Assembly (NCBI GenBank): GCA_039831335.1 | Contig: JBDONL010000003.1 | Span: 652,238 to 716,237 of the forward strand | Direction of reading: 5' to 3' | Length of the DNA: 64,000 nucleotides | Source of the DNA: Sphingomonadaceae bacterium | GTDB lineage: Bacteria > Pseudomonadota > Alphaproteobacteria > Sphingomonadales > Sphingomonadaceae | Part shown: positions 10,103 to 26,177 of the stretch, one piece after another | Layout: each line of letters starts with the position of its first letter | Position numbering within the stretch: the stretch's first letter is position 1 | Notes under the pieces: model-generated | Databases searched by the model: none | What the model was told of the DNA's origin: nothing | Seen by the model: only the letters and a program-made list of their open reading frames with translations | Position numbers and translations under genes: made by a program

Positions 10103-11332
10103 ATGGCTCAATACAAGTCCGAATTGCTCCGCCTACTGGATGAGCGGGGATATATCCACCAAATGACGGATGCGGAGGGGCTGGACGCTCTTGCCGCAAG
10201 CCAGGTGGTGCCGGGCTATATCGGTTTCGACCCCACCGCGCCTTCACTCCATGTCGGAAGCATGGTGCAGATCATGATGCTGCGCCGACTCCAGCAGACC
10301 GGGCACAAGCCTATCGTGGTGATGGGTGGCGGCACCGGGAGGATCGGCGATCCTTCGGGTAAGGACGAAAGCCGCAAACTGATGACGAGCGAAGTCATCG
10401 CCGCCAATGTCGCGGGTATTCGCAAGGTTTTCGACCGGTTGCTGACGTTCGGTGACGGGCCGACCGATGCAGTAATGGTCGATAACAACGAATGGCTGGG
10501 CGAGCTCGGCTACATTGACCTGCTGCGCGATGTCGGCCCGCACTTCACCATCAACCGCATGCTCGCATTCGATTCGGTCAAACTGCGGCTCGATCGCGAA
10601 CAGCCGCTAACCTTCCTCGAATTCAATTACATGATCCTGCAAGCCTACGATTTCCTCGAGCTTGCAAGGCGCTACGATTGCAAGTTGCAGATGGGCGGCA
10701 GCGACCAATGGGGCAATATCGTTAACGGTATGGAGCTCGGGCGGCGCATGGAATCGCGTGAGCTCTACGGCCTGACGTCACCGCTCATAACGACTGCCGA
10801 TGGTGCCAAGATGGGCAAGAGCGCTGCCGGTGCGGTGTGGCTCAACGAAGAGCAATTGCCCGCCTACGATTTCTGGCAATTCTGGCGCAATTGCGATGAC
10901 CGCGATGTGGGCCGGTTCCTCAAGCTGTTTACCGATGTTCCGTTGGACGAAATCGCTCGTCTGGAAGCGCTTGAAGGTGCCGAAATAAACGCCGCGAAGC
11001 AGGTGTTGGCAAACGAAGTTACGCGCCTCATTCGAGGGGAGGATGCCGCGAAATCGGCGGAATCGACAGCCGCGGCCACCTTTGCGGGCGGTGGTCTGGG
11101 CGAGGATCTGCCGGTGCTGCACCTCGGAAACGAGGGAATGCGGATCGGCGCGGCCCTGACCGAACTCGGATTTACCAGTTCAGGTGGCGAAGCGAAGCGA
11201 AAGCTCGCCGAAGGTGCGGTGCGGCTCGATGGCGAAGTCGTGAGCGATCCCGGCGAAATTCTGTCGCTTGACGACGGGGTGGAGGCGCGTCTCAGCCTCG
11301 GTCGAAAGAAGCACGCCATTCTCAAGCGCTGA
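10103..11332 (+). CDS. tyrS: Tyrosine--tRNA ligase
   Basis: HIGH-type motif (APSLHVGS), KMSKS-type motif (KMGKS) and a C-terminal S4-like domain. 409 aa. Confidence 0.95.
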
Positions 11333-22875: not shown

Positions 22876-25281
22876 CTATCCCTCGATCCGCGAGAAATCG
22901 GCAACTTTGTGCACTGCAGCACGAAATTGCGCAAGCAAATCGAGCCGGTGTGCGCGTTTGTTTTCTTCCTCCGCGTTTACCGTCACTTCTTCGAAGAAAC
23001 GGTCGATCGGCGCGCGCAGGCTAGCGAGCGCCGCCATGGCGGCGGAGAAGTCCTCTGCCTCAATGGCCGCACTCGCCCGCGGTTCCGCATCGGCGAGCGC
23101 ATCCATCAGCGCCTGTTCGGCGTGTTCGGGCGGATAGGACAGTTCGCTGGCATGGCGCTCGGCCATCTTGGCATCGACCACTGCCTTCATATCGGGATCG
23201 TCGACCATGGCGAGCGGGTCTTCCTCACCCGTGCGCGCAATCTCGCCCTCCGCGCCATGCCAGTCTTCCTTCCTGAGAATATTGGCCGCGCGCTTGTAGC
23301 CCGCGAGGAGATTGGCGCCGTCCTCGGTGGCGATGAAGGATTGGAGCGCGTGGACACGCGCGAGCAGGCGGACGAGATCGTCCTCCCCGCCGAGCGCGAA
23401 CACCGCGTCGATCAGGTCATGGCGGACGCCCGCCTCGCGTTGCTGAACCTTGAGGCGATCTGCCAGGAATTCCACAACTTCAAAAGCACTCTCAACGACT
23501 GAATCGAGTGCCTCCGGTGGGACTTCTGTCTCGCGAACTAACGCAGCATATTTCGCAACATCAAATTGCGCTTTAGCAAAACCGCTGCGGCTAAAAGCTT
23601 CAAAGTCGCGCTCCACTTTGATTTTGACATCTGACAGCAGCAACGGTGTCAGTAGTGCATTTAAATAAGCAGACTGTAGAAGTTTGAAGAGCGGCAGTCG
23701 TGTTTCATTTACTTGAACGGTCCGCAAAACACCTAATGCCGCTCGGCGGAGTGCGAACGGATCTTTTGAACCTGTCGGAGCCATCGAAAACGCGAAGAAG
23801 GAAACCAACGTATCCAATTTATCCGCCAAACTCACCGCCACCGTCACCGGCGCAGTCGGCACTTCGTCGCCCTGCCCGACTGGCTTGTAGTGATCGCGGA
23901 TCGCGTCGGCCACGGCATCGGGCAGGCCTTCGGCGCAGGCGTAATAGCCACCCATAAGCCCCTGTAGTTCTGGGAATTCACCGACCATTTCGGTGACGAG
24001 ATCGGCCTTGCACAGACGCGCTGCCTGTTCGGCGAGGTCGGCGAGTTGCTTGATCTCTTCGTCATTCCGGCGAAGGCCGGAATCCATCTCTCGGTCATTC
24101 CCGGGGGATGGATGGACCCCGGCCTCCGCCGGGGTGACGGACCGGGGTGTGACGATCCCCTCCTCGACCAACCACCTTGCCAGCTTCGCGACCCGCTCGA
24201 CCTTGTCGGCGACGGTGCCCAGCTTCTCATGGAAGGTTATCCGCTCGAGCTTCTTGGCGTGGTCTTCCAGCGAGGTCTTCTGGTCCAGCTCCCAGAAGAA
24301 CCGCGCATCGGAAAGCCGCGCGGCGAGAACCTTGCGGTTGCCGTCGACGATCGCCGCGCCGCCGTCTTCTGCTGCGATATTGGCGTTGCAGACGAAAGCG
24401 TTGGCGAGCTTGCCGTCCGCATCCTCGCAAACGAAATACTTCTGATTTACGCGCGCGGTGAGCTGGATGACTTCGGGCGGAACATCGAGAAACGCCTCGT
24501 CGAAGCGCCCGAGCAACGGCACCGGCCATTCGGTCAGCCCGGCGTTCTCGATCACCAGCCCTTCGTCCTCGACCAAACGCAAACCAGCGTCTGAGGCGAC
24601 CTTGCTGGCGCCCTCGCGGACCAGCGCAGCGCGCTGCTCGTGATCGACGATTACATGGGCCGCGCGCAGCTTCACAGCATAGTCGTCGGCGTTGCCGATG
24701 GTGACATCGCCCGTGTGGTGGAAGCGATGGCCCAGCGTCACCGCACCACTGGTCACGCCATGCACTTCGCACTCGACCACTTCGTCGCCGAGCAGCGCGA
24801 CGATGCCCGAGAGCGGGCGCACCCAGCGCAAGCTCTCGGTGCTGATCGAAGCCGCACCCCAGCGCATCGACTTGGGCCACGCAAAGTCGCGAATGATCGC
24901 CGGGATCGCCTCGGCCAGCACGTCGCGCACCGCCCTGCCCGGCTTTTCGATCACCGCGAAATAGGTCGGCCGTCCCTTTACGTCGCGCACTTCGAGCTGG
25001 TCGCGAGTGACGCCGTTCTTGCGGCAAAAGCCTTCGACCGCCGGATCGGGCGCACCCTCGGGCGGGCCCTTGGCTTCCTCGCTGACCGCTTCGGTCGCTT
25101 GCGGCAGGTCACGCGCGATCAGCGCAAGGCGGCGCGGCGTGGACCAGACGGTCAACGCGCCCACCGAAACGCCTGCGGCATCCATCTCGCGCCGGAACAG
25201 CTTCTCCAGTTCGGCGCGCGCACCGGCCTGCATCCGCGCGGGGATTTCCTCGCTGCGCAGTTCGAGGAGGAAGTCGGTCAC
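22876..25281 (-). CDS. glyS: Glycine--tRNA ligase beta subunit, carrying an in-frame repeat insertion
   Basis: [17 protein letters not shown]-terminus and the [14 protein letters not shown] motif. Start placed at GTG 25281, forming a GTGA overlap with the glyQ stop. The ORF extends to 25311. Confidence 0.9.
24061..24154. repeat. Nested-palindromic (REP/MITE-like) element inserted in-frame in glyS
   Basis: Left arm 24061..24088 gtcattccggcgaaggccggaatccatc. Right arm 24111..24138 gatggaccccggcctccgccggggtgac; 23 of 28 positions are complementary. Each arm has its own hairpin (TTCCGGC/GCCGGAA and CCCCGGC/GCCGGGG). Alternative-frame translations give VIPAKAGIH and [10 protein letters not shown]-type peptides. 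Confidence 0.75.
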
Positions 25282-26177
25282 AGGCTCCACTCCGGATATT
25301 TCTTGGCCCATTCGGGGGCCATCTTCTCGGCATAGGCTTCGCAGCTCGACCGCGCGAGGTCGCGCACCCGACCCATGTAGCTGGCGCGTTCCTGCACGCT
25401 GATCACGCCGCGCGCCTGCAACAGGTTGAACACGTGGCTCGCCTCGATCGCCTGTTCATAGGCCGCGATAGGCACCTGGTTGGCAAGCGCATTGCGGCAT
25501 TCCGCCTCGGCCTTGGCAAACAGGTCGAACAGCGCATCGGTCTCGGCGACTTCGAAGTTCCACTTCGACATCTGCTTCTCGTTTTCGAGAAACACCTCGC
25601 CATAGGAAACGCCGCGCCCGTTGAAGTCGAGGTCGTAGACATTGTCGACGCCCTGGATATACATCGCCAGGCGCTCCAGCCCGTAAGTCAGCTCGCCCGC
25701 CACCGGCTTGCAGTCGAAGCCGCCCATTTGCTGGAAATAGGTGAACTGGGTGACTTCCATCCCGTCGCACCAGACTTCCCAACCCAGCCCCCATGCGCCG
25801 AGCGTCGGGCTTTCCCAGTCGTCCTCAACGAAGCGGATATCGTGCTTGAGCGGGTCGATCCCGATCACCCGCAGGCTCTGCAGGTAGAGGTCCTGGATAT
25901 CGGGCGGGCTCGGTTTCAGGATCACCTGATACTGGTAATAATGCTGGAGCCGGTTGGGGTTTTCGCCATAACGCCCGTCAGTCGGGCGACGGCAAGGCTG
26001 GATGAAAGCCGCATTCCATGGCTCGGGGCCGAGCGCTCGGAGCGTCGTCGCGGTGTGAAACGTGCCCGCCCCCATGCGCATGTCATAGGGTTGCAGGATC
26101 AGGCAGCCCTGCGCGCTCCAGAAATCATGGAGCGCGAGGATCATGTCCTGAAAACTCTTGTTCGGCTCTCGCTGCAT
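25278..26177 (-). CDS. glyQ: Glycine--tRNA ligase alpha subunit
   Basis: 299 aa. Highly conserved [17 protein letters not shown]...[26 protein letters not shown]. Confidence 0.97.

Follow-up and report, generated by a model that had tools for sequence, protein, structure and literature searches.

In a 64,000-nucleotide stretch of a Sphingomonadaceae genome (GenBank assembly GCA_039831335.1, contig JBDONL010000003.1; this whole stretch is referred to as the window), the gene glyS, encoding the beta subunit of glycyl-tRNA synthetase (GlyRS), contains an inverted dimer of repetitive extragenic palindromes (REPs) of the CGTC-1 type, in frame. We consider it very likely that this dimer, together with two partial copies of the repeat head, is a derived element that is translated and tolerated as a near-neutral passenger, comparable to the palindromic elements of Rickettsia. 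A CGTC-1 dimer in glyS of another member of the bacterial family has already been published (see below), so the phenomenon is known and the window provides a further example of it. What can be added is a comparison of the same site between relatives.

The element is built from two inverted arms (24060-24088 and 24111-24139) of 29 nt that are 83% complementary and 22 nt apart, and within each arm 8 perfectly paired bp enclosing a loop of 4 nt form a separate hairpin (24064-24083 and 24116-24135). An earlier note on this DNA, made from the letters alone, had described a palindromic structure at 24061-24154 with arms complementary at 23 of 28 positions, a separate hairpin in each arm, extra copies of the terminal motif and a glyS frame that stays open throughout. 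All of these features were recovered, and translation of the segment yields exactly the peptide quoted in the note as well as the peptides it gave for other frames, including VIPAKAGIH.

A CGTC-1 repeat is defined by a CGTC tag that stays unpaired, followed by a stem of 8 bp closed by a 4-nt loop and by a short CCA tail, with complementary A/T nearly always at the first and second stem positions, and the units commonly occur as inverted pairs with a spacer of ~20-100 bp (Di Nocera, De Gregorio and Rocco 2013, BMC Genomics 14:522, PMC3733652). Both arms of the glyS element hold a complete unit of this design. Unit 1 (24060-24086, plus strand, 27 nt) reads CGTC / ATTCCGGC / GAAG / GCCGGAAT / CCA and has a perfect 8-bp stem with A and T first. 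Unit 2 (24113-24139, minus strand, 27 nt) reads CGTC / ACCCCGGC / GGAG / GCCGGGGT / CCA; its 8-bp stem is also perfect and starts with A followed by C, a variant that is common and is found in the orthologous loci L001, L002 and L005 as well. The unpaired CGTC tags (24060-24063 on the plus strand and 24139-24136 on the minus strand) point outward and the CCA tails inward, leaving a spacer of 26 nt between the tails (24087-24112). The gene is encoded on the minus strand, so that unit 1 is antisense to glyS and is read by it as (E)MDSGLRRND, and unit 2 is in the glyS sense and is read as (S)VTPAEAGVH.

The two partial head copies complete the element. One, GTCATTCCCGG, lies within the spacer (24094-24104, plus strand), and the other, CGTCACACCCCGGTC (24140-24154, minus strand, 15 nt), lies directly upstream of unit 2 in the gene sense. 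The CGTC of the latter is part of the gene's own ...ATC GTC A... (Ile-Val codons), and in CGTC-type alleles generally the repeat head coincides with this ATC GTC A of glyS. In L001 (11209-11253) the head of the left unit is expanded to three 15-nt tandem partial copies, CGTTAAACCGCACTC / CGTCACCCCACACCC / CGTCATCCCGCACCC, which encode PHPV(T/I), as compared to a single copy in the window. Such tandem heads suggest that the CGTC head has undergone slippage or has been the place of repeated abortive events.

The window variant of the unit occurs as an exact 27-mer in at least 120 stretches of genomes that belong to many taxa (among them Sphingomonas, Allosphingosinicella, Devosia, Dyella, Micavibrio and Bradyrhizobium). 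Intergenic copies are present in related genomes (L008, 21055-21131). This bears out the suggestion in the earlier note that the segment belongs to a widespread proteobacterial palindromic repeat. The single copy in the window could be taken as a sign of an assembly artefact, or of a loop that has simply expanded in one lineage and has its palindromic form by chance. This explanation is refuted by the exact fit to a defined repeat family, by the distribution of the 27-mer and by the occurrence of the same architecture in independent assemblies. Moreover, the repeat-unit pattern had no match in 100 dinucleotide-preserving shuffles of the window, and the coding-strand RNA of the element folds with -72.2 kcal/mol (z = -3.96), a value that none of 200 shuffles reached. 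The 126 nt between the conserved anchors fold with z = -6.0. We regard the probability of chance or artefact as negligible.

The host gene is a full-length orthologue with an undisturbed reading frame. The annotated product of 801 aa starts at GTG 25281 (22876-25281, minus strand) and the longest open reading frame (ORF; 22876-25311, minus strand) encodes 811 aa from ATG 25311. The protein is 81% identical to GlyS of Porphyrobacter algicida over 99% of its length and 70-80% identical to many Qipengyuania and Erythrobacter proteins, contains the Pfam domains PF02092 and PF05746, and matches E. coli GlyS (7yse_C) with E = 3e-96. The glyS frame is open through the whole insert, and it is kept because the net length is a multiple of three and four of the six reading frames of the element are free of stop codons.

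That the segment is an insertion, as the earlier note had proposed, follows from its absence in E. coli and in 13 of 114 orthologues. In the alignment with E. coli 7yse_C the break falls at query 384/426, corresponding to E. coli 378/385, with 41 residues in the window against 6, in agreement with the note's statement that the flanking conserved blocks are nearly adjacent in E. coli. With T. daxensis 7lu4_A the break falls at query 382/426 (686/698), with 41 residues against 11. For a closer comparison, the best 120 GlyS proteins of Erythrobacteraceae were used, 114 of which could be parsed; this set is dominated by one species group. DNA of the site was taken from nine orthologous loci (L001-L008 and L249), which together with the window make up the ten loci referred to below. 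Among the 114 orthologues, 93 carry a CGTC-type insert at the site, 13 are empty, and the remaining ones carry inserts of the D type (5), E type (2) or F type (1). The empty form, ...IVK(G/D)AD(A/P)DMAEQ..., shares G-A-D with ...QIGADVNHA of E. coli. As judged from these alignments, the ancestral state of the glyS site is empty and the insert is derived.

In comparison with empty alleles, the additional sequence spans approximately 24046-24150 (minus strand), with borders ambiguous by a few bases, and corresponds to about residues 385-416 of the 811-aa ORF. Counted from one conserved DNA anchor to the other, the length is 126 nt in the window and 30 nt in the empty allele used for comparison (L004, GGCGTGGTCAAGGGCGCCGATGCGGACATG). 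The net gain of 96 nt, or 32 codons, is close to the ~31 residues estimated in the note.

In E. coli GlyS, the HD domain comprises residues 341-540 and is all-helical (H11-H22; PMC8464048). Ser393 and Lys394, its degenerate HD doublet, lie in a helix lining the conserved cavity of the domain (PMC8464048, PMC9908026), and this cavity is covered by tRNA U73/C74 in the complex (PMC9908026). The insert falls between the positions equivalent to E. coli residues 378 and 385, 8 residues before the equivalent of Ser393/Lys394. An AlphaFold2 model based on a 24-sequence alignment was poor (mean predicted local distance difference test, pLDDT, 48.8; predicted template modelling score 0.27) and was used cautiously, for secondary structure alone; it places a helix at 357-373, coil at 374-406 and a helix at 407-432 (801-aa numbering, low confidence). 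The comparison with the E. coli and T. daxensis proteins shows the insert between two helices of this domain, in a connection that varies naturally in length.

The proximity of the insert to a helix of the cavity that contacts U73/C74, together with the filling of the site in 101 of the 114 orthologues, could be seen as a sign that GlyRS has recruited the inserted peptide as a functional loop, for example one contacting the tRNA, the alpha subunit or a partner protein. On the other hand, the peptide is wholly different between lineages, which use different palindrome families and different frames and have 27-43 extra residues, and the empty alleles are scattered over the tree of the protein. 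The insert of the window is rich in Pro, Gly, Ser, Asp and Arg, a composition typical of a disordered segment. A co-opted function thus appears highly improbable to us, and we favor the tolerated passenger.

The family to which the element belongs has been characterized in some detail. CGTC-1 repeats are mostly alphaproteobacterial, and they were equated with dRS3 of Neisseria and with the Rickettsia palindromic element RPE-6, RPE-6 and RPE-4 being classed as CGTC-1 and CGTC-4, respectively (PMC3733652). A CGTC-1 dimer in glyS of Erythrobacter litoralis HTCC2594 (ELI_05865, residues 398-423, VVPAKAGTSLGQSAKTNEIPASAGMT) is listed in Additional file 3 of the same study, as are further CGTC-1 dimers of this organism in ileS, truB, rsmE and dnaE2 (PMC3733652). 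The E. litoralis dimer agrees with that of the window in gene, bacterial family, repeat family and an inverted-dimer architecture that is translated in frame. It apparently also occupies the same site, given its position and its near-identity to inserts of the type designated 'A2' (for example P0108, VVPAKAGTAIGQGATSTAIPASAGMT). The two dimers differ in stem subtype (CCCGCG in E. litoralis, CCGGCG...GCCGG in the window) and in the frame of the right arm (IPASAGMT as opposed to MDSGLRRND), and the window element is further set apart by its spacer and by its additional partial head copies.

Both the window element and the Rickettsia palindromic elements are in-frame palindromic repeats with a CGTC tag inside housekeeping genes (here glyS) that leave the ORF intact. 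Ogata and co-workers, in 2000 and 2002, reportedly described such in-frame repeats in Rickettsia as translated and tolerated. The parallel, already drawn in the earlier note, turns out to be closer than an analogy, in that RPE-6 is placed in CGTC-1; this membership in the same superfamily is that of the published classification (PMC3733652). RPE-1 differs in being longer (~100-150 bp) and in having dozens of intragenic copies in Rickettsia, as compared to one copy in 64 kb here, and Rickettsia is obligate intracellular whereas the present host is a free-living marine alphaproteobacterium.

The Neisseria repeat dRS3 (ATTCCC-N8-GGGAAT) is likewise classed as CGTC-1 (PMC3733652). Its unit design is the same as that of the window element, with CGTC, a stem of the ATTCC type, a 4-nt loop within N8 and a CCA tail. 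It occurs in large intergenic clusters (NIMEs), in contrast to the window element, which has no such context. dRS3 repeats serve as integration sites for phages and insertion sequences (IS), and no such context is seen at the window element either. REPINs, in turn, are GTAG-tagged REP doublets moved by REP-associated tyrosine transposases, RAYTs (Bertels and Rainey 2011, PMC3116915; Nunvar et al. 2010). They share with the window element two inverted REPs, a short spacer, folding into a single long hairpin and the presumed nature of non-autonomous mobile DNA, but their tag is GTAG and that of the window is CGTC. The element also has the inverted termini of a miniature inverted-repeat transposable element, but its flanks (...GGGAT/CGTC ... 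GACG/AAGAG) are not direct repeats and there is no target-site duplication.

The site in glyS exists in many states. CGTC-type dimers were found in five loci, with stems CCGGCG (window and L001), CCCGCG (L002 and L005) or CCCAGC (L249), and L006 has a variant with longer loops. The left arm is read as VTPAEAGV or RHSREGGNP and the right arm as MDSGLRRND or IPASAGMT, that is, in at least two frames per arm. Three loci carry unrelated nested palindromes, of the F type in P. algicida (L003), of the D type in L007 (RPEPVEGPSF...STSSART) and of the E type in L008. Palindromes of the F and D families are absent from the window. All nine filled alleles (eight loci and the window) fold as long hairpins, with z between -3.0 and -7.4, and filled alleles have a common right junction, (E/D)LAD(L/M)AEQ, as compared to ADPDMAEQ in the empty ones. 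The site after ...RWLVEEGIV is not the only one of its kind: glyS of L001 (Qipengyuania sp. DY56-A-20) has a further in-frame nested palindrome at residue ~286 (...CCCCTCCCGCTTGCGGGAGGGG...CCCCCTCCCGCAGGCGGGAGGGGG..., z = -9.2; locus ~10856-10954, columns 320-346 of alignment A1), which belongs to the same family as the main-site element of P. algicida. An extra stretch of 20 residues in P0095 (A1 columns 204-223) is not palindromic.

In a neighbour-joining tree of the conserved protein core, empty alleles occur in scattered positions, 'A2' alleles fall within groups of nearly identical 'B' alleles, and the window (A-type) is the sister of P0002 (F-type). Turnover at the site is visible also in the DNA. 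L005 (B) and L249 (A2) are ~95% identical up to sharp borders around two different dimers, with extra mismatches for ~12 nt beyond the element on the left. This pair shows that replacement of an element can be recent and that the site turns over. The window and the distant L001 have the same heterodimer, whose left unit has the ACCCCGGC stem and whose right unit has the ATTCCGGC stem, and the two agree in its orientation and frame. Their REP arms are identical at 26/27 and 30/30 positions, as compared to 75.6% identity between the genes, and their spacers are unrelated.

A second palindrome site was found at the junction of glyS with glyQ, the gene for the alpha subunit (25278-26177, minus strand). 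Palindromic elements, either CGTC-1 dimers or of the D type, fill this junction in seven of the ten loci, the empty ones being the window (25278-25281), L003 and L004. In the window the junction (...GAGTGGAGCCTGTGACCGACTTC) is without a repeat element because the TGA stop of glyQ overlaps the GTG start of glyS. Junction elements are located at ~9750-10000 in L001, 9909-9987 in L002, 9903-9990 in L005, 9909-9987 in L008 and 5903-5990 in L249, and are present also in L006 and L007. The same family occupies the junction and the internal glyS site in L002, L005 and L249 (CGTC-1) and in L007 (D-type), whereas the two families differ in L006 and L008.

A small junction ORF of 40-44 aa was called in L002, L005, L006 and L249. 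In L002 it begins with the former start codon, which overlaps the stop of glyQ, traverses the element and ends in an overlap with the new glyS start, which is preceded by GGAGG. Such a repeat-encoded bridge ORF, checked in detail in L002, may preserve the translational coupling of glyQ and glyS.

These comparisons bear on how the element arrived in the lineage of the window. The filled allele, or only a patch surrounding the site, might have been imported from another species of Erythrobacteraceae by homologous recombination instead of being inserted here, in which case the apparent hotspot would consist of one or a few old insertions followed by allele shuffling and replacement in place. This proposal concerns the arrival only and is otherwise compatible with a tolerated passenger. 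It would account for the heterodimer shared by the window and the distant L001 when the nearest relative of the window, P0002, has a different element, for the common right junction of all filled alleles, and for the additional mismatches of L005 and L249 to the left of the element. Against import stands the tendency of each genome to use one family both at the junction and internally, which fits insertion by the family that the genome happens to carry. The polyphyly of the empty alleles also speaks against it, although this comes from a neighbour-joining tree of proteins and is not a robust test. Import is a possibility to be taken seriously, but we hold it to be the less probable route.

A bolder proposal is that the glyS position after ...RWLVEEGIV and the glyQ-glyS junction are true targets, at which no fewer than four unrelated palindrome families have landed independently and more than once, some of the exchanges being recent, and that the near-perfect conservation of the arms reflects a trans-acting machinery that is still active. 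The coincidence of ATCGTCA with the repeat head would fit insertion next to a CGTC target, by analogy with the single-strand transposases of the IS200/IS605 type, which insert beside a tetranucleotide. We regard repeated targeting as unlikely.

The conserved arms could alternatively indicate that the element acts in cis as a hairpin in the glyQS operon, for example by pausing the ribosome and thereby aiding HD folding, in processing or stability of the mRNA, or as the target of a conserved DNA-binding protein, with the peptide as a by-product. Besides the arms being far more alike between the window and L001 than the genes and the spacers are, the conservation of the 27-mer across phyla, the second palindrome site at the junction in seven of ten loci and the high stability of the hairpin (-72 kcal/mol) would be in line with such a role. 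However, the element is dispensable in 13 orthologues and in the rest of bacteria, and the site is occupied by unrelated palindrome families with different spacers and in different frames, which means that no particular sequence is needed. In the window the junction is, in addition, without an element. Neither a T-run terminator nor a promoter-like site was found in glyQS, and an Rfam search at a permissive threshold gave generic hairpin matches only, the best with 26 bits to a microRNA model that has a gathering threshold of 128. We consider a cis-acting hairpin improbable, and a passenger remains the preferred explanation.

According to this explanation, the dimer would either have been inserted at or beside the gene's own ATCGTCA, which matches the CGTC(A) of the repeat head, or have arrived with a filled allele by homologous recombination. 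The insert would then be transcribed and translated as ~32 residues forming an unstructured loop that joins two HD-domain helices, and the enzyme would tolerate the loop, making the element a near-neutral passenger. A copy in an essential gene may be retained while intergenic copies are freely lost, because an imprecise deletion in such a gene is lethal. The same reasoning would explain the finding that, in ~250 kb of Erythrobacteraceae DNA (the window and nine glyS loci), 9 of 10 CGTC-1 dimers lie in glyQS, when the dimer of the window is included and the atypical L006 dimer excluded. This enrichment is only suggestive because the loci were chosen for glyS.

Several points weigh against the passenger explanation. 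The CGTC dimer in glyS is the only one in the window, so that repetition within this genome is not demonstrated. No transposase is known for CGTC repeats, and neither a RAYT nor any other transposase has been found flanked by CGTC units (PMC3733652). In line with this, no recurrent transposase-like neighbour was found among ORFs of at least 110 aa within 400 nt of the units in 240 loci, a search of low power; the only ORF clusters recurring beside the units were spurious GC-rich ORFs and phage head genes. The surface exposure of the insert is inferred, and the mean pLDDT of the model is too poor to prove it. The filling of most orthologues could mean that a long loop is favored, in a sample that is heavy in one group. 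Finally, and most importantly, the passenger model alone leaves unexplained why the arms are so much better conserved than the gene. Such conservation is unexpected for a neutral loop that drifts, and it points to recent arrival, to homogenisation or to a constraint on the DNA or RNA.

Outside glyS the repeat is widely distributed. The genome scan gave 152 units in 120 other loci, most of them intergenic, among which 40 inverted pairs with spacers of 12-125 nt were found, and a looser 26-mer was found in at least 120 viral contigs in the viral scan. Both 120-row scans show the breadth of the distribution and not the number of copies per genome. Among the matches listed for the exact 27-mer are metagenome-assembled genomes (MAGs) labelled Bathyarchaeota (L140, L178), Chloroflexota (L152), Cloacimonadota (L133) and Bacteroidetes (L153). 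Such copies in distant phyla may reflect extreme conservation, horizontal spread or mis-binned MAG contigs. Clusters are rare for CGTC repeats (PMC3733652). A dense intergenic array of CGTC-type units, with long spurious ORFs encoding SFRRRPES peptides, was seen in a Devosiaceae MAG (L187, 880-2400).

Long ORFs that span units were present in the 120 genome loci, and the ten longest were inspected. Eight of them have the unit at the ORF end and a ninth (L143) has it just upstream of a likely internal start; these nine look like stop-to-stop artefacts of intergenic copies. In the tenth (L158) the unit is located at residues 51-84.

The palindromic insert is not the only variable part of glyS. 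A second variable region, HV2 (23461-23739, minus strand; residues 525-617), lies between DPFALRRA and DRLKVQQRE at the boundary of the HD and anticodon-binding domains. In the window its GC content is 0.47 and that of third codon positions (GC3) 0.39, as compared to 0.65 and 0.77 in the rest of glyS. In 117 orthologues, HV2 has a short form of 28 residues in 67, three of which were examined as DNA and have normal GC3, and in the other 50 it has 43-113 residues that fall into 34 mutually unrelated BLASTP clusters; GC3 is 0.51-0.62 in six other loci with a long HV2. The region is not palindromic, and no DNA similarity was detected between HV2 cassettes. The cassette of the window resembles that of P0004, from another clade, and had no credible homologue in 1.84 billion representative proteins, the only match being a spurious repeat protein. 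A compensated frameshift was rejected as the origin of HV2 because its total GC is low and not merely its phase. HV2 may be a more unusual feature of glyS than the palindromic insert.

As a single observation the glyS insert matters little, since in-frame insertions of REPs and Rickettsia palindromic elements have been documented in housekeeping genes, including glyS of Erythrobacter. The added value lies in the comparison, with one exact site in an essential gene, its occupancy by several families, sharp borders and at least one recent exchange. The locus thereby offers a compact natural system for studying how CGTC-tagged repeats without a known transposase move or are exchanged, and whether essential genes are refuges in which such elements outlive their intergenic relatives. 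It would also illustrate the amount of unstructured sequence that a bacterial GlyRS can accommodate in its HD domain near the cavity for the tRNA acceptor end, which is relevant to proposals for targeting this cavity with drugs. If the reading of repeated targeting were true, the locus would be a natural trap for the movement of CGTC repeats and for the enzyme that mobilises them.

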